Shown: piece by piece, positions 782 to 50,884 of the stretch | Position numbering within the stretch: the stretch's first letter is position 1 | Layout of the letters: each line of letters opens with the position of its first letter | Assembly: GCA_015295985.1 (NCBI GenBank) | Contig: DVDX01000032.1 | Coordinates: 44,740 to 108,739 of the forward strand | Direction: 5' to 3' | DNA length: 64,000 bases | Origin: Synechococcus sp. M44_DOE_062 | GTDB taxonomy: Bacteria > Cyanobacteriota > Cyanobacteriia > Thermostichales > Thermostichaceae | Notes under the pieces: model-generated | Told to the model about the DNA's origin: nothing | Database searches by the model: none | The model's input: the letters and a program-made list of their open reading frames with translations, nothing else | Made by a program: the position numbers and the translations under genes

Positions 782-885
782 CTCCAGACCTTCCCATTGA
801 GGGATCGACAAAGACCTACGGACCGCTGACGCAAAAGGATAGACTGGTATATCCTACTCCCCTGCCTTTCTAAGATCTGGCCGCT

Positions 886-7944: not shown

Positions 7945-10626
7945 ATGCTCTCTCTGGCTGCAACTGAACCTCATCTGAGTCCCATCGATCTGGATCGCCT
8001 GCTCACCTCTGAGATTCAGCGGCCAGCCCGCTACTTGGGCAAAGAGTTCGGTGCTGTCCACCGTCCTTGGGATTCGGCACGGGTGCGTTGGGTGCTGAGC
8101 TACCCGGAGCTGTACGAGGTGGGAGCTTCCAACCTGGGCCACCTCATCCTCTACAACATCCTCAACGCTCAGCCGGATCAATTGTGTGACCGCACCTACT
8201 TGCCAGGCCCGGATCTGGCTGCCCGCCTGCGGCAGTTGGGGATCCCGCTGTTTGCCGTGGAGTCCCGCCGCCCTCTGCGCGCCTTTCACATCATCGGCTT
8301 CAGCCTGGCCTATGAGTTGGGGGGCACCAACATTCTGGAGATGCTGGATCTGGCTGGGATCCCGCTCAGGTGGTCAGAACGGCAACCCTTCACCCCGGAA
8401 GAGTGCCCTCTGATCTTTGCCGGTGGGCCGACCGCCACTTCCAACCCAGAGCCCTTTGCCGACTTTTTCGATTTCTTCGTCTTTGGAGATGGAGAAGAGG
8501 TGCTACCGGAGATCGGCAGGGTGCTGGCCGGATCCCTGTCCAAGCCTCGCCGGACGGTGTTGCTGGAGCTGGCGCAGGTACCGGGGGTGTATGTGCCCCA
8601 GTTTTATGATGGGATCCCGCCCCGACCCATCGTACCTGGGGTGCCGGAGCGTGTCCGCCGTCGGGTGGCCCTGCCCCAACCGCAATACGCCGTCGGCCTG
8701 GTGCCTTTGGTGGAAACCGTCCACGACCGCCTGGTGGTGGAAGTGCGGCGGGGCTGCACACGGGGCTGCCGGTTTTGCCAGCCAGGAATGCTCACCCGCC
8801 CAGCGCGGGATGTGGATCCGGAAGCAGTGGTGGAAGCGGTGGTGCAGGGTTTGCGCAAAACCGGCTACAACGAGTTTTCCCTCTCTTCTCTCAGTTGCTC
8901 CGACTACCTTTCCCTGCCGGCGGTGGGAGCGGAGCTGCACAACCGTCTCCTCAGAGAACACATTGCCCTTTCCCTGCCCAGCCAGCGGGTGGATCGTTTT
9001 GATGAGCAAATTGCCGCCATCATGAAGGGATCCCGCCGCTCCGGCCTCACCTTTGCCCCCGAAGCCGGCACCCAACGGCTGCGGGACATCATCAACAAGG
9101 GCCTTACCGACGCCGACTTGATTCGCGGCATTCGCACCGCCGCCCAGGAGGGCTGGGACAAAATTAAGCTCTACTTCATGATTGGGCTGCCCGGCGAGAC
9201 CGATGCCGATGTGATTGGGATCGCCCGCACCGTCGAGATGTTGCAGCGAGAATGTGCTGCTGTAGGCCGCAAGCGGGTGGAATTTACCCTCACCCTCTCC
9301 AACTTCACCCCCAAGCCTCACACCCCCTTCCAGTGGCACCGGGTGGACTACGCCGACGTGCAGCGGAAGCAGGCCCTGTTGCAAAAGGAGCTACGCCGAC
9401 TGCGGGGAGTCAAGGCCCACTTCACCGATATCCGTTTCAGCATCCTGGAAGACTTCATCGGCAAAGGGGATCGTTCCCTGGGCCGCATGATCGAGCGGGC
9501 CTGGCGGGCCGGTGCTGGCATGGATGCCTGGTGGGAAAACATCGATGCTGCCTACGCTGCCTGGGTGAGGGCCTATGGCGGCGAAGAGGTGGATCCCAGC
9601 GCCGATCCGGTCGCCCTCTGCGCCCATCTCCCCATCCGAGAATTGGGCCTGGAGGATCCCTTGCCCTGGGATCATATCGATACCGGCATTGACAAAAAGT
9701 GGCTGCAAAAAGACTACCGCCGCGCCCTGGAAGCCCTCACCGTGGAAGACTGCTCCTTTGAGGGCTGTTCCGCCTGCGGCATTTGCGGCCCCGGCTTCGG
9801 CCACAACATCGTCATTCCCCCCCCGCCCGTCCCACCCCTGCAGAGCCAACCCGCCCCCACCCCCGATCCCCTAGAGCCAGAGCCGGCAGCCCAGCGCTTT
9901 CGCATCACCTACGGCAAAACCGGGGATCTGCGCTGGCTGGGCCACCTGGATCTGATGCGTTTGTGGGAACGAGCCTGTCGGCGAGCAGGGTTACCTCTGG
10001 CCTTCAGCGGCGGCTACCACCCCATGCCCCGCTTGGCCAACGCCAATGCCCTGCCCATCGGCCAAGAAGGCTATGGTGAAATTCTGGATCTGGAACTCCT
10101 GGCTCGTCCCGGGGATCCCTTCACCGCCGCCGAACTGCGGGCTCTTCTGGCCGAACAACTGCCCCTCGAGATCCCCATTCAAGCTGTCCAAGAAATTGGC
10201 CTACGGGATCCCTCTGCCACCGAAGCCGTTTACGCTGCCGAATATCAGCTCACGGTGAGCTGCGAGCTGCCCGAAACCATTTGCGTCAGCGGGATGGAGT
10301 CCTCTTGGCCCGCCTGGGTTACCCAGATTCTGGATGCGCAGGAAATCTGGATTGAAAAAACCTCCAAGTCCGGCAAGCCCTCTCCCTTCAATGCCCGCGC
10401 TCTGCTCTACTACCTAGAGTTTCAGGGCTGGACCCCCGAGGGCAGCGCTCGCCTCCTTTACCGGGGCAGTTGCCGCAACGACGGCGCCTACCTGCGGCCC
10501 ACCCATCTGGTGCAGATGGCCGAGGCATTGGGGTTACCCCGCTGGACACTCCAGACGGCAAAGCGGCTGCGTCTATTGTGGGAGAACCCCGTATCCGATA
10601 AAATTGAGGACTGCCTACGGGAGTAA
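7945..10626 (+). CDS. B12-binding radical SAM protein (TIGR03960-like) fused to a DUF2344/TIGR03936 domain
   Basis: CxxxCxxC motif RGCTRGCRFCQ, YPELYEVGASNLG, CxxCxxC near the C-terminus, then RWLGHLDLMRLWERACRRAGLP (DUF2344); ATG at 7945 preferred over the upstream TTG. Confidence 0.88.
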   Translation: MLSLAATEPHLSPIDLDRLLTSEIQRPARYLGKEFGAVHRPWDSARVRWVLSYPELYEVGASNLGHLILYNILNAQPDQLCDRTYLPGPDLAARLRQLGIPLFAVESRRPLRAFHIIGFSLAYELGGTNILEMLDLAGIPLRWSERQPFTPEECPLIFAGGPTATSNPEPFADFFDFFVFGDGEEVLPEIGRVLAGSLSKPRRTVLLELAQVPGVYVPQFYDGIPPRPIVPGVPERVRRRVALPQPQYAVGLVPLVETVHDRLVVEVRRGCTRGCRFCQPGMLTRPARDVDPEAVVEAVVQGLRKTGYNEFSLSSLSCSDYLSLPAVGAELHNRLLREHIALSLPSQRVDRFDEQIAAIMKGSRRSGLTFAPEAGTQRLRDIINKGLTDADLIRGIRTAAQEGWDKIKLYFMIGLPGETDADVIGIARTVEMLQRECAAVGRKRVEFTLTLSNFTPKPHTPFQWHRVDYADVQRKQALLQKELRRLRGVKAHFTDIRFSILEDFIGKGDRSLGRMIERAWRAGAGMDAWWENIDAAYAAWVRAYGGEEVDPSADPVALCAHLPIRELGLEDPLPWDHIDTGIDKKWLQKDYRRALEALTVEDCSFEGCSACGICGPGFGHNIVIPPPPVPPLQSQPAPTPDPLEPEPAAQRFRITYGKTGDLRWLGHLDLMRLWERACRRAGLPLAFSGGYHPMPRLANANALPIGQEGYGEILDLELLARPGDPFTAAELRALLAEQLPLEIPIQAVQEIGLRDPSATEAVYAAEYQLTVSCELPETICVSGMESSWPAWVTQILDAQEIWIEKTSKSGKPSPFNARALLYYLEFQGWTPEGSARLLYRGSCRNDGAYLRPTHLVQMAEALGLPRWTLQTAKRLRLLWENPVSDKIEDCLRE

Positions 10627-11338: not shown

Positions 11339-13534
11339 ATGCCCAGGCAGATCGTCATTGCCGAGCAACATCGAGTGGCAGCCGTCTTCGCCGAAGATCA
11401 AGTGCAGGAGCTGATCGTCGCCAGCGGCGCTCACCAAGTGGGAGACGTCTACGTCGGAATCATCGAGAACGTTCTGCCCAGCATTGATGCTGCTTTCGTC
11501 AACATTGGCCCCGCAGAACGCAATGGATTTATTCACGTCACCGACCTCGGCCCGCTGCGCCTCAAGCGGAGCCATGCTTCCATTTCTGAGCTGGTCTTGC
11601 CGCAGCAAAAGGTGCTGGTTCAGGTGATGAAAGAGCCCACCGGTAACAAAGGGCCAAGGCTCACCGGAGATTTGGCCTTTCCGGGGCGGTATCTGGTGCT
11701 GCGACCTTATGGCAAAGGCGTCCATCTGTCCCGCCGCATCGAGGATCGGGAAGAACGCAACCGTTTGAAATCTCTGGCCATTTTGATTAAACCCCCACAG
11801 ATGGGCCTGCTGGTACGCACCGAAGCGGAGGGTGTGTCTGAAGAAGCGATGATCGACGACCTGGAGCAATTGAAGAAACTCTGGGAAGATATTCAACAGC
11901 AGTATCAGGCAGCACGGGGGCCGGGGCTCCTCAACCGGGATGACGACTTTATTCAGCGGGTGCTGCGGGATGTTTACTCCGACGATGTGAACCGCATTGT
12001 AACCGACTCTGCGGCGGGAGCGAAGCGAGTTCGTAGCTATCTGCAAGGTTGGAACAAGGGCCAAATGCCCCCCGGTGTTGTCGTCGATGCCCACCGCGAG
12101 CCTACCCCCATTCTGGAGTATTTTCGGGTCAACGCGGTTATTCGTCAGGCGCTGCGTCCGCGGGTGGATTTGCCCTCTGGCGGCTACATCATCATCGAGC
12201 CCACCGAGGCCCTGACGGTGATCGATGTCAACTCCGGCTCCTTCACCCAATCGGCCACCTCTCGGGAGACAGTGCTGTGGACAAACTGTGAGGCGGCTAC
12301 CGAGATTGCCCGCCAGTTGAGGCTGCGCAACATTGCCGGCGTGATTGTGGTGGATTTTATCGATATGGATTCCCGCCGCGACCAGTTGCTGGTTCTGGAG
12401 CATTTTAATAAAGCCCTCTCCAGTGACAAAGCTCGCCCCCAGGTAGCCCAACTGTCGGAATTGGGGCTGGTGGAGCTCACCCGCAAACGGCAGGGGCAAA
12501 GCCTTTACGAGATCTTCGGCCATTCTTGCCCCACCTGTGAGGGGCTGGGGATCCTGGCCCGCTTGCCGGGAGCCGAGCCGGGGCATCTGTTAACGATAGA
12601 GAGTGGCCTGACGGTAACGCTGCCCACCGAAGCGGAAGAAGGGGATGAGGAAGAGGCCGGCCCAATCCTGCCCCGCGATGGCAGCTCCCAACGGGCACGC
12701 CTGCGAGTGGGGAGCGATGGGCTGTCTCGAGGTGATAGCCGTGCGCTGCTGCGGCGGTCGCGCTCTGCCCCCGGACAACGACGCCCTAGCCCGGATCCCT
12801 TCTCGCCCTTTGCCACCCCGGTCGATCCGGAAGAGGAGCCACGGGTTGAAACGGGACGCAAGCGGCCCCGCGAAGACTGGGGGGATCCCCGCCCCGGCCA
12901 GCGCCTTGTTACGCGGAGCCCGGATACTCTTGCAGAAGAGGGAACCCCGGAGCTGCTTGGAGACGATCTCTTGCAACCGGCAGGGGGCGGAGCCGATCCA
13001 AAGCGTCGAGAACCCCGCCATTCTGGCCGTGGGGAAGAGGCAGAATCCACCGCACGCAAAGACCACACCCCCCCAGCCCGCACCGTTCGCGCCAGCGGGA
13101 CGGAGTCCTCAGAAGGCCGTCCGGCGCCGGTACGGCAAACGGTCACCGTGGAGATGACCCCGCTGCAACAACGGGTCTACTCGGAGTTGGGTCTGTCACC
13201 GCTGTTGCTCCTTGACCAGCCGCCGCCTTGGGGCCGAGACACGGCGGTTAGGGTGGTTCTGCCGGGAACTGCAGAGGCGGAAAGCCCACCCGAGATGGAG
13301 ACTGAGACAGCTTCTCAAGCGGAGGAGTTCGCACCCAAACCGGAGGCCTCGCAGGAGGAGGAGCCGCTGGGTGACGTTTCTCCACCCGAACCCTCTGAAC
13401 CCGAAATCCCCTCTGCTGAATCGTTGGCGTCAGCAGTGCAGAGCAGCTTGGCCGAGCCAGCGGCGGAACTGGGGATCAGCCCTGCCCAGCAATCTCCGGC
13501 AGCCTCTAGGCGGCGGCGCTCCCGCAGCAGTTAG
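11339..13534 (+). CDS. rne: Ribonuclease E/G
   Basis: [17 protein letters not shown]1 domain ([13 protein letters not shown]), [25 protein letters not shown]; disordered C-terminal half. Confidence 0.95.
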
Positions 13535-31082: not shown

Positions 31083-31129
31083 TCTTGCGCTGGTTCCCAA
31101 CTCTCCCTCTGGGAGAAAGGCTGGGGGTA

Positions 31130-31153
31130 GTCGCGTCAGCGGCGCGGAGCGCT
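31130..31153 (+). repeat. 24-nt small dispersed repeat (intergenic copy)
   Basis: GTCGCGTCAGCGGCGCGGAGCGCT, same family as the insertions at 49823-49846 and 50583-50607. Confidence 0.8.
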
Positions 31154-34922: not shown

Positions 34923-35122
34923 TAGCCGCTTCAGGTTAGGGTGAGACGCCTGGGCTACTGAGAAAAGTCTTCTGTTTGGCGCATTATTGCTCCGCAACGC
35001 TGTTGCTATGCCTACGGCACCCTGACGGGAACCGCAACGCTGACGCGAGGACGCGACGACGCGACGGCGTGACCAATGTTTTAAGTGTGGATACAGTGTC
35101 CTGATTTGAATCGAAATGGCCA
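34923..35122 (-). mobile_element. MITE-like repeat copy B, expanded by nested small repeats
   Basis: TA|TAGCCGCTTCAGGTTAGGGTGAGAC...CAGTGTCCTGATTTGAATCGAAATGGCCA|TA with TA on both sides; about 90 extra nt of SDR-like sequence inside. Confidence 0.75.
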
Positions 35123-35380
35123 TAGTTGTTCTAAGCAGGAATACAACTATTCCGTTTCATTGCTTCCTAGCTCCTGTTTCCCTTTGCCTGGGAGCAGTCG
35201 CGGAAGTAGTGCGGAGCAGTTGGGAAGTATCTTAATCTAACTTGAAATAACCATACGCACGACTGAAAGCGGTTGTTCGTTTTGCCTATCATGAGCCGGT
35301 GTGAGATTCTAATCTCTCGATAATTTCTCGGATAAGATGCTCATCAGAGTGCTTGATCTCCGGGTGGGAAGGCACCTGTT

Positions 35381-39879: not shown

Positions 39880-40715
39880 GCTGCCACCAGGGCAGAGTAA
39901 GTGAGTCGGCCATAATCCTTGCCGGGAATGAGAGGCTCGCCGGGATCCGGATCGGTGCAGCTCAGGGGTTCCCAAACGGCACCGGCCCCTTTGACAATGA
40001 CCCACACTGCCGCCACATCCCAGATCTTGGGCGAGCGTTCTACCGCCCCCAAAAGGCTGCCACCGGCCACCGCCAGCAGGTTGTAGGCAGCACCTCCCAA
40101 CATGCGCGCCTTGCAGGGGAAGTGCGGGCTAATCCAATGGGTGCTGCGGGAGCAGAAGTTAAACAATTGGTTGGGGCCAGGTGAGGCGGTACTGGGACGG
40201 ATTGGCTGGGGACAGGCGGGATCCCGGTCGTGGCGGGTGAGAAAAGCCCCTGCCGCTGCATCATCGGGAAACTGGGGCCAGTAGCCGTAAAAAGTCTGGC
40301 GAATGGGCGGCAGATGGACACAGCCAAACACCGGTACGCCCCAATGCAGCAAAGCCAAGGAACTGCCCCAAATGGGGATCCCACGGGCAAAATTGGTGGT
40401 GCCATCCAAAGGATCCACTACCCAACACCACTCCTTGTCGGGGAAAATGTGGTTAGACTCCTCGCTCAGGTAACCGTGATCGGGGTAGGCAGCGGCAATA
40501 GCTCTTTGAAAAGCGCGATCCGCCCATTCGTCAGAAGAGGTTACCAAGCTGCCGTCAGCTTTTAAGGACTCCGTCCCGCTGGCGCGAGCCGTGGGGTGGG
40601 CCTGGCCAAAGTCTGCCAAGAGCTGGGATCCCACGCTGGCCGTGACCTGCAGGGCAAACTCGGTAACCTCCAGCCAGAAAGGGGATAGAGCAGCAGTTGC
40701 AGAAGGAGCATTCAT
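39834..40715 (-). CDS. Inositol monophosphatase family protein
   Basis: SEE, WVVDPLDGTTNF, WDVAA. Confidence 0.9.
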   Translation of the reverse strand: MNAPSATAALSPFWLEVTEFALQVTASVGSQLLADFGQAHPTARASGTESLKADGSLVTSSDEWADRAFQRAIAAAYPDHGYLSEESNHIFPDKEWCWVVDPLDGTTNFARGIPIWGSSLALLHWGVPVFGCVHLPPIRQTFYGYWPQFPDDAAAGAFLTRHDRDPACPQPIRPSTASPGPNQLFNFCSRSTHWISPHFPCKARMLGGAAYNLLAVAGGSLLGAVERSPKIWDVAAVWVIVKGAGAVWEPLSCTDPDPGEPLIPGKDYGRLTYSALVAAQAEWIPLFRTFIAL

Positions 40716-49349: not shown

Positions 49350-49822
49350 GTATTCTCATCAATAAATATTCTCATCAAATGTTCCCATCAGTCTATCAAT
49401 CTGTTGTGGTGCAGAGCCCCTGCCGTTCTACCGGCTGGAAAGTTAGCGCCGGTTACCAAAAACCTGGGTTTAAAGCCCCGCCCTTCCAGGACGGCTTTAT
49501 CCATTAGACCTCGTGATAAAATCAGGGCATGATTGTCCGAGAAGCCAAGCTCCTCAACGGCACAGCCCAGCAGTACCAAGCCTTGGACGAGGCTATTCGT
49601 ACTGCCCAGTTCATCCGCAACAAGTGCCTGCGCCACTGGATAGATAACCAGGGGGTGAACAAAGCTACCTTGTACTCCCTCTGCAAGGACTTGGCCAGAG
49701 AGTTTCCCTTCGCCCAGAAGCTCAACTCCTCTGCCCGACAAACCAGCGCGGAAAGAGCTTGGTCTGCCATCTCCACCTTCTACTGCCGCTGCAAGAACAA
49801 GGAAGCCCAGAAAGGCTATCCC

Positions 49823-49846
49823 GTCGCGTTAGCGGTGCGTAGCACT
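49823..49846 (+). repeat. 24-nt small dispersed repeat inserted in frame in tnpB
   Basis: GTCGCGTTAGCGGTGCGTAGCACT splits KGYP|KFQK and adds VALAVRST. Confidence 0.85.
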
Positions 49847-50582
49847 AAGTTCCAGAAGCGGTGTCGCTCCGTGGAGTACAAAGTCTCCGGCTGGAAGCTG
49901 GCAGGGGATGGGAAGTCTATCACCTTCACCGATGGCTTTCAGGCAGGCACCTTTGCTTTGTACTGCAACGGGGAAGCGCGGCGGGACATCCTCACCCTGA
50001 AAATCAACCGGGTGCGGGTGATAAGAAGGGCTGACGGCTACTATGCCCAGTTCTGCCTGGACGTGGAGCGTCGGGAGGAGGTGGAGTACACCGGGCGGGT
50101 GGTAGGGCTGGATGTGGGCTTGATGCACTTCTACACCGACAGCAACGGAAACAAGGTAGAGTGCCCCAAGTTTTTGCGTCGTGCCGAGAGGAGGTTGAAG
50201 CAGCAACAACGCAGATTAAAGATTAAGTCGCAAGTTTCGCAAGGGGGCCAAACCCCAATCCAAGAACTACCACAAGCAGAAGCAACGGCTAGGCAGAGTG
50301 CATCTCAAAGTCCAACGCCAGCGTAGAGACTGGGCTGTGAAGCTGGCCCGGTGCGTAGTGGTGTCTAACGACATCGTGGCGTATGAGGACTTGCCGGTGC
50401 GCAACTTGGTGAGGAATCACCACTTGGCCAAGGCTATCCATGATGCGAGTTGGGGTTTCTTCTCCAGGTGGCTGGACGACTACGGGAAGGTGTTTGGCAA
50501 GGTGGTGGTGGCAGTGCCGCCGCAGTACACCAGCCAAGACTGCTCTGGTTGTGGCTACCGGGTGAAGAAGACGCTGTCCACT

Positions 50583-50607
50583 AGCGCTCCGCGCCGCTCA
50601 CGCGAAC
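50583..50607 (-). repeat. 25-nt small dispersed repeat inserted (reverse orientation) in the tnpB Zn finger
   Basis: Reverse complement GTTCGCGTGAGCGGCGCGGAGCGCT; removing it restores STRTHRCPRCG. Confidence 0.85.
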
Positions 50608-50699
50608 CGCACTCACCGCTGCCCACGGTGTGGGGTGATACTGTGCCGCGATGAGAATGCGGCCCGGAACATTCTGCGCAAAGGGTTGGAGTTGTTGGG

Positions 50700-50884
50700 T
50701 GGGGAGTGGAACAACGGTACCTAAGGGCATTAGGGAACCGCCCCGCACGGGGGAACGCCTGGGGAGACAAGCACCGCTGTCGTAGAGGGGCAACCCAACA
50801 CGGTAAGTGCTGTCGTGGAACCAGGAACAAGAATCCCTGCCCTTTAGGCAGGGGAGTATGTCAAGTCGGTTCAAACATCTCAAA
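50700..50884 (+). ncRNA. Putative omegaRNA/reRNA of the TnpB element plus flank-derived guide
   Basis: By established TnpB biology the scaffold overlaps the tnpB 3' end up to the right end (50864) and the guide is the downstream flank; 5' boundary is a guess. Confidence 0.45.

Follow-up and report, generated by a model that had tools for sequence, protein, structure and literature searches.

The small dispersed repeats (SDRs) SDR4, SDR5 and SDR6 of the Nostocaceae, reportedly described by Elhai et al. in 2008 (Genome Res 18:1484), are the described mobile DNAs that come closest to the element treated here. SDR5 inserts precisely between bases 3 and 4 of the HIP1 palindrome, GCG^ATCGC (PMC4390886), no SDR-like repeat was found outside the Nostocaceae among HIP1-rich genomes, and Yellowstone strains carry GGGATCCC in place of HIP1 (PMC5861425). 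We analyzed a 24-nt repeat of Synechococcus sp. M44_DOE_062 which interrupts a tnpB gene twice within a stretch of 64,000 nt (the window, C26:44740–108739). The genome under study (G000) comprises 2.93 Mb in 90 contigs with 58% G+C and is 100% complete; C numbers denote its contigs, G005 is the sister genome and G001 and G008 are other members of the genus. A preliminary description, made from the letters of the window alone, had already likened the repeat to the SDRs, and we could support this by sites that are empty in paralogs, the sister species or ten species of the outgroup, as well as by the insertion point YG^A, which is that of SDR5. The inserts are in our view probably copies of a mobile DNA element that is non-autonomous, very small and belongs to the SDR5 type.

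The resemblance to the SDRs begins with size, as these are 21–27 nt long (PMC5861425, PMC4390886) and the repeat described here has 24 nt. Both are dispersed, high in copy number and hairpin-forming, both have empty orthologous sites and both nest in other repeats, and the SDR5 site GCG^ATCGC compares with CYG^A in our case, a rule that was derived independently. In contrast, the host is here a unicellular thermophile without HIP1, so that the target is a bare tetranucleotide, and the repeat is far more abundant (about 800 copies in 2.9 Mb) and located inside genes in half of the cases. We file the element as a new and strongly expanded SDR member in a lineage without HIP1, likened to the SDRs by their published description and not by sequence or fold. 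Literature searches with the repeat sequence and for these Synechococcus found no description of it.

The open reading frame pieces at 49529–50725 (forward strand) match the OrfB_IS605 and Cas12f1-like_TNB (zinc-ribbon) profiles, which identifies the gene as tnpB, here a pseudogene in a tnpB-only element of the IS605 family. The whole element spans about 49454–50865 and is preceded by TTACC, its limits being those of the similarity to a paralog on C85. Copy A, GTCGCGTTAGCGGTGCGTAGCACT at 49823–49846 (forward strand), is an exact match that reaches the full score of 17/17 and folds as two mini-hairpins; it consists of a linker G (49823) and the 23-nt core TCGCGTTAGCGGTGCGTAGCACT of the GTGC/GTA subfamily, lies at the site CCC^A and keeps the tnpB frame, being translated as VALAVRST. 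Copy B is oriented in reverse, with the core TCGCGTGAGCGGCGCGGAGCGCT at 50605–50583 (GCGC/GGA subfamily, 17/17), and two linker bases beside the core (50606–50607) make it a 25-nt insert at 50583–50607 in the site ACG^A, which shifts the frame and cuts the zinc-ribbon domain between profile positions 38 and 39. When the gene was aligned to its nearest paralog in the same genome (C85:27060–28428, 72% identity), three clean gaps of 24, 7 and 25 nt appeared opposite to it, and neither the 24-nt nor the 25-nt gap can be slid by one base. Two G005 paralogs are also without the inserts, Copy A missing at 1177303–1176905 and Copy B at 1092529–1092137. Both inserts had been deduced in the preliminary description from the reading frame, together with the advice to align related insertion sequences (IS), and the three paralogous TnpB elements indeed lack the segments. 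The 7-nt gap corresponds to a tandem duplication of AGATTAA (50213–50226, forward strand), a third lesion unrelated to the repeat, which is the source of the first frameshift; around it the OrfB_IS605 profile positions 1–67 and 64–119 are found in different frames. The tnpB gene was either dead before the insertion or else killed by the 25-nt copy and the 7-nt duplication.

Several other tnpB-element tails in G000 bear a repeat copy at one fixed spot, between GGGAACCGCC... and ...GGGAACGCCTGG (C10:52683, C28:5831, C35:9570, C60:42409, C7:52404, C70:6418 and C76:11929), in the region where the guide RNA scaffold would lie; the equivalent site of the window element (50735–50765) is empty. As the flanks of these tail copies do not fit CYGA, they probably go back to one old event that was multiplied by the IS.

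The core of the repeat has 23 nt and the form TCGCG-NN-AGCG-ssss-GKA-ssss'-T, with one variable base on each side; its consensus is TCGCGNNAGCG followed by the hairpin, and conservation ends about four bases upstream and two bases downstream. Scoring over the core (17 points at most, cut-off at least 14) revealed 802 copies in G000, corresponding to one per 3.6 kb, against 17 in the reversed genome that served as control. The pattern GCG-ssss-GKA-ssss' with a perfect 4-bp stem gave 461 matches against 9 in the reversed genome, and by both searches the motif is far more frequent than chance. According to the stem the matches of the second search fall into the subfamilies GGAC (153), TTGC (84), GTGC (74), GCGC (41), GGCC (33), TCGC (17) and AGCC (12). 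The unit is predicted to form two adjacent mini-hairpins as single-stranded DNA, CGC-GNNA-GCG and ssss-GKA-ssss', and the same fold was obtained for all five subfamilies tested. Its loops are a GNNA tetraloop and a C-GNA-G triloop, which stay constant along with the 5' TCGCG while the stems vary. The C-GNA-G triloop is known as an exceptionally stable DNA mini-hairpin, and the GNNA mini-hairpin is also unusually stable. Compensatory changes are present in both stems, with Watson–Crick pairs in 94% of copies at positions 12–22 (GC 544, TA 177), 90% at 13–21 (GC 376, TA 233, CG 85), 94% at 14–20 (GC 347, AT 289, CG 104) and 83% at the hairpin-1 pair 3–10 (GC 612, CG 42), where CCC...GGG is the variant form. 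Copies also occur in tandem arrays with a period of 24 (33 adjacent pairs in G000), as head-to-head dimers with zero spacing and the junction CGCGA|TCGCG (15 in G000 and 5 in G005) and inside each other. At least nine contigs of G000 (C3, C15, C21, C26, C33, C69, C74, C80 and C81) start with copies or tandem arrays, so that longer arrays probably break short-read assembly.

The evidence for mobility comes mainly from a comparison with G005, the closest relative (one contig of 3,046,682 bp, about 92% identity), of which the first 2 Mb were compared and 1.73 Mb aligned. Indels between the two genomes peak sharply at the length of the repeat, with 99 events of 24 nt against 6 of 23 nt and 4 of 25 nt, as well as 4 of 48 nt, and of the indels with 24 or 48 nt, 103 in total, about 90 are due to the repeat. 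Clean events number 71, the copy being on the G000 side in 41 and on the G005 side in 30, and 57 of them are located in coding sequence. Five copies in the window (10281, 13087, 13425, 37739 and 40565) are common to both species at orthologous positions; together with the species-specific 24-nt events this indicates that the family was active before the split of the two species and has been active since. The direction of the change can be read from the copy in the inositol-monophosphatase-family gene (40565–40587, reverse strand, on the sense strand of the gene), which of the 12 species in the genus only G000 and G005 possess. As the ten other species are empty at this site, the case is an insertion: the empty site reads ACGG-A-AAAAGC and the filled one ACGG-[C or T]-core-T-AAAAGC. 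A hot region at C58:24000–40000, equivalent to 316–327 kb in G005, is dense in copies (about 20 within 12 kb) and in 24-nt events specific to one species (12 within 10 kb). It was considered as a home of the mover gene and rejected, as only housekeeping genes are located there (FtsY-like, PMT-like glycosyltransferase, permease, CobN and valyl-tRNA synthetase).

A look for target-site preference, also proposed in the preliminary description, resulted in a clear consensus. Oriented by the core, the 71 empty sites show C in 79%, Y in 93%, G in 70% and A in 83%, followed by a base other than C, giving the target 5'-C-Y-G-A-3' without target duplication. The filled site consists of C-Y-G, one base (u1), the 23-nt core, one base (d1) and the sequence following the A of the empty site. 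For the 58 events with A in the empty site, d1 is A and u1 is not in 18, u1 is A and d1 is not in 10, neither is A in 29 and both are A in 1. Formally, the simplest single description is that 25 nt stand in place of the A with a net gain of 24 nt, and the inositol-monophosphatase site is a direct example of this. As the gain equals 8 codons, the copies can sit in genes without a frameshift. The base d1 goes along with the subfamily, being T in GGAC and GGCC and A in TTGC and TCGC, and u1 is uniform in young bursts, with A in 8/8 G005 events of one core and T in about 40/40 copies of a subfamily named TCCCG, while it varies among older copies. The two tnpB sites match this rule only loosely (CCC^A and ACG^A), and the one extra base of Copy B is rare, given 4 events of 25 nt against 99 of 24 nt. 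Three other ideas about the junction were tried and rejected: a 1-nt target duplication (A-core-A) is rare with 7/149 cases, a P-nucleotide-like origin of the TCG conflicts with cores that still start with TCG where the target has T at -2, and hairpin loops as preferred targets do not exceed random expectation (20% against 16% at random CYGA sites), the loop cases in IS ends being anecdotal.

The target Y-G-A is the antiparallel complement of T-C-G, the first bases of the core, and G:C or G:T pairing accounts for the Y. This relationship can be followed in the TCCCG subfamily, in which hairpin 1 is CCC/GGG instead of CGC/GCG and the core starts with T-C-C, and which has about 40 copies in G000 against 4 in G005. 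In G000 nearly all of these roughly 40 copies have the GGA loop of another copy as their site (G-C-G-G^A). A C at core position 3 is accompanied by the pairing G in the flank in 42/86 copies compared with 72/1085 otherwise (Fisher p = 4e-23), and a T at core position 2 by the pairing A in 29% compared with 15% (p = 0.001). The pattern of the TCCCG subfamily fits a target recognition by pairing with the first three bases of the element. The pairing rule also accounts for the head-to-head dimers and the arrays with a period of 24, and since u1 = A regenerates CYGA, the site can receive another copy, giving rise to tandem arrays.

Among 41 relatives the repeat is confined to the 12 species of the genus, with 18–268 copies by the strict pattern against 0–3 elsewhere. 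Searching species-representative genomes with the GGAC pattern yielded hot-spring Synechococcus isolates and Thermostichus metagenome-assembled genomes, but also Geitlerinema sp. BBD 1991-9 (33 strict copies), Baaleninema simplex PCC 7105 (13) and one Gloeomargaritales genome (1), and all of these show YG-N flanks. The GGAC copies of Geitlerinema share 10-nt flanks on both sides (GARGTGCCGT ... TAGGCGGA) and thus travel inside a larger repeat; its GTGC-type copies have unique flanks. In a class-wide sample of 401 genomes we found genuine low-copy members (3–12) in several other families, and copies of the TTGC type are located on plasmids of Nostoc sp. UHCC 0870, Kovacikia minuta and S. elongatus UTEX 3055. 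The Nostoc plasmid copy (110637–110659) lies inside an annotated pyruvate kinase gene and reads GGCG-T-core-C-TCGCGC, and the S. elongatus plasmid copy reads GCGA-core-A-TCGC. From their GCG and TCGC flanks both are split HIP1 sites, in which the central A is replaced in the case of Nostoc. Viral contigs, searched for phage carriage with three subfamily patterns, gave no match.

These data suggest a model for the movement of the SDR5-type element in which the target would be picked by base pairing of Y-G-A with the T-C-G of the element, creating a junction that may be understood as a half-palindrome with the same logic as the HIP1 sequence GCGA|TCGC. Strand transfer would proceed through single-stranded, hairpin-folded DNA and would be carried out by a putative enzyme acting in trans. 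Several points weigh against this reading. The pairing signal comes mainly from the TCCCG lineage alone and hence from one evolutionary event, and there are copies with A at core position 3 that lack the predicted T in the flank, which may be later mutations. The exact CYG flank is retained in only 32% of all copies, and G000 gives no clear sign that the linker bases are inherited (chi-square p = 0.16), so that the replacement of A by 25 nt is a description and not a mechanism. Moreover, no intermediate was seen, and the coding and non-coding figures depend on a crude custom gene caller. As a more speculative extension, which we regard as possible rather than likely, the 24-nt unit might be a self-guided single-stranded DNA element that finds its site by the YGA/TCG pairing and is retargeted when these bases change, as appears to have happened in the TCCCG subfamily with its insertion into CGGA loops. 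A small and putative enzyme, shared horizontally among cyanobacteria, would then write a 25-nt hairpin cassette over one adenine, and HIP1-type palindromes (GCGA|TCGC) would be its footprint or landing pad.

The most concrete rival as the mover is the TnpA of the IS200/IS605 family. TnpA recognises subterminal hairpins in single-stranded DNA (PMC6006769), and the repeat could be a minimal passenger of this family, its hairpin bound by the Y1 (HUH) enzyme, peeled and pasted as single-stranded DNA and landing 3' of a tetranucleotide that pairs with an internal guide. Such elements have in common with ours a tetranucleotide target and the lack of a duplication, and hairpin recognition in single-stranded DNA and a target set by pairing with internal bases would be further shared traits. 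The rules used for this comparison are those of IS608 and ISDra2. The repeat follows them with its 4-nt target, its hairpin and its element–target complementarity with covariation, and in the youngest G005 burst the insertion lies directly 3' of CYGA in 8/8 cases. The tnpA-proximal end of the local IS605-like element has a native GTCC-GTA-GGAC hairpin with the same type of loop and is a hot spot for the repeat as well, with differing subfamilies and orientations at one place beside this hairpin in different IS copies (C71:48081–48130, C16:22961–23004 and G005:544267–544312). IS200/IS605 elements have two different hairpin ends and a length of hundreds of bases, whereas here a single 23-nt core is present whose counts do not follow tnpA. 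The three Y1 genes of G000 are each interrupted by a stop or a frameshift, yet it is here that TCCCG expanded, with about 40 copies compared with 4 in G005, where an intact Y1 TnpA copy is located at 544340–544735. Numbers of Y1 matches and repeats are unrelated across the genus (19 and 57 in G001, 2 with one intact and 268 in G005, 0 and 22 in G008), and Y1 transposase copy number was rejected as a predictor of repeat number. Furthermore, local tnpB-only elements are flanked by TTACC and not by CYGA, the 3' end of the repeat is unlike the target, and the A at the left junction is lost in most copies, being kept in 10/58 events with A in the empty site. The copies show no orientation bias along the G005 chromosome, a test made weak by the flat GC skew. 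Taken together, we consider a passenger of IS200/IS605 rather unlikely.

Two further classes of palindromic repeats resemble the SDR5-type element in part. Repetitive extragenic palindromic sequences (REPs) are also short hairpin repeats with hundreds of copies, their inverted doublets (REPINs) recall our head-to-head dimers, and they are thought to move as single-stranded DNA by means of a Y1 HUH enzyme. A minority of REPs is located inside genes (PMC3733652). The element described here differs by the lack of a GTAG or CGTC tag at the hairpin foot, by its fixed 24-nt unit, by having 50% of its copies in predicted genes and by copies that do not cluster around a Y1 gene. A gene of the type of the REP-associated tyrosine transposases (RAYT) was not found in G000, where only three Y1 loci exist, all of the IS200 type with a YIENQ motif and all broken. 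Without RAYT, without tag and not being extragenic, the element does not belong to the REP/RAYT system. The Rickettsia palindromic elements (RPEs) are likewise selfish palindromic DNA found in frame in many protein genes, to which they add peptide segments. RPEs have a length of about 100–150 bp; the element here has 24 nt, a defined 4-nt target and tandem arrays.

Copies could also arise without any dedicated enzyme through an error of replication or repair, in which a 3' end at CYG switches its template to a copy with the same flank, copies the hairpin unit and returns. The CYG-like bases before every copy could act as microhomology, the linker bases are variable, tandem arrays are frequent, and the unusually stable mini-hairpins could stall or release the polymerase at a fixed place. 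On the other hand, the net length is fixed (99 events of 24 nt against 6 and 4 at the neighbouring lengths), the right junction is exact without conserved homology, and the target of TCCCG has changed at a base that is complementary to, and not identical with, the 5' end of the element. In addition, the same core occurs in Geitlerinema, Baaleninema, Nostoc, Kovacikia and S. elongatus, and its being kept in such distant cyanobacteria points to a conserved factor that recognises it. On balance, template switching appears improbable to us. That the repeat is not mobile at all and is a selected motif (an uptake or recombination signal, a regulatory RNA hairpin or a peptide repeat) arising in place by mutation and conversion would agree with the strong over-representation, the structural constraint, the link to HIP-like half sites and some old copies kept in both species, but it is hardly tenable given presence and absence in clean 24-nt blocks with exact borders, copies within each other and within IS ends, and copies on both gene strands in all frames, which argue against a peptide function. 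A route through RNA, with a reverse transcriptase acting as in retrons, telomerases or group II introns, might be suggested by the exact period of the tandem arrays and the priming-like microhomology. It is very unlikely because the 100%-complete genome has no RVT_1 match, and the orientation bias of the copies relative to genes is only modest.

Turning to the genomic location, we used a simple custom gene caller that predicted 2448 genes and 83.5% coding sequence. Inside genes are 399 copies (50%, random positions 82%), 372 are intergenic (46%, random positions 15%) and 31 overlap gene edges (4%, random positions 3%). In total 249 genes, or about 10%, contain at least one copy, among them conserved ones encoding radical SAM/DUF2344, RNase E/G, inositol monophosphatase, FtsY-type GTPase and valyl-tRNA synthetase. 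These copies lie on both strands and in all frames (223 sense, 176 antisense). The frame reading R-x-S-G-T-E-S is in excess, and tandem copies lead to peptide repeats such as RVSGTESS and AVAVRSTL. Multicopy DNA holds 19% of the copies compared with 2.2% of random positions, an 8.6-fold enrichment in IS and MITE sequences that exists partly because host repeats multiply their passengers; most copies are in unique DNA.

With these numbers some ideas of the preliminary description have to be modified. Its statement that most copies fall in or next to other mobile elements does not hold, as only 19% are in multicopy DNA and 50% are inside ordinary genes. Selection against insertion into core genes is reflected in the under-representation of coding DNA (50% against 82% expected), but genes are far from avoided. 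The term hyperparasite suits the TCCCG subfamily, which nests almost only in the loops of other copies, but this is a different layer from the one described.

Besides those in tnpB and in the inositol-monophosphatase-family gene, the window holds further copies. A copy in the radical SAM/DUF2344 gene (10281–10303, forward strand, sense) is old and common to G005, and one in the RNase E/G gene (13087–13109, forward strand, sense) has an identical copy at the orthologous G005 site. Of the intergenic copies, the one at 31130–31153 (forward strand, GCGC/GGA subfamily), named in the preliminary description, proved to be a perfect family member (17/17); the stretch around it does not align with the orthologous G005 locus. 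The one at 812–834 (reverse strand) has a diverged stem and scores 15. A nested cluster on the reverse strand at 34986–35048 contains a TCCCG...GGCAT copy (core 35008–35030) within the GGA loop of a TTGC-type copy that starts at 35048, the flanks gttgcggt and agcaacag being the two halves of the host copy, and a further partial TTGC copy is present at 34986–35008. The degenerate copy reported at 35197–35220 (forward strand) is probably a decayed family member with a broken hairpin 1, although it is marginal with a score of 14/17, at which about 0.3 false matches per window and about 15 per genome are expected. The preliminary copy list had missed at least six copies of the window (812, 10281, 13087, 34986, 35008 and 40565) and the AGATTAA duplication. 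A second short repeat, CTCTCCCTCTGGGAGAAAGGCTGGGGGT, adjoins the 31130 copy at 31101–31128 and is single-copy in the window. Many copies of it exist in other genomes of the genus, both alone and joined to the 24-nt unit, a 53-nt composite recurs, and it may represent another family of small dispersed repeats.

If it is true that three bases of the element set its target, the system could develop into an easy tool for writing short cassettes into DNA. Practically, the copies confuse gene calling and population analyses based on indels, and their arrays probably break short-read assemblies. The SDRs belong to the smallest known mobile DNAs, and the question of how they move, which dates from 2008, becomes testable in this genus: it combines insertions of recent date by the hundreds with many sequenced isolates, an exact 4-nt target, a naturally retargeted subfamily and the lack of a reverse transcriptase. 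For the organism itself, which serves as a model in microbial population genetics, an insert of 8 residues in about one tenth of the genes means a large source of variation in protein length that has gone unrecognised.

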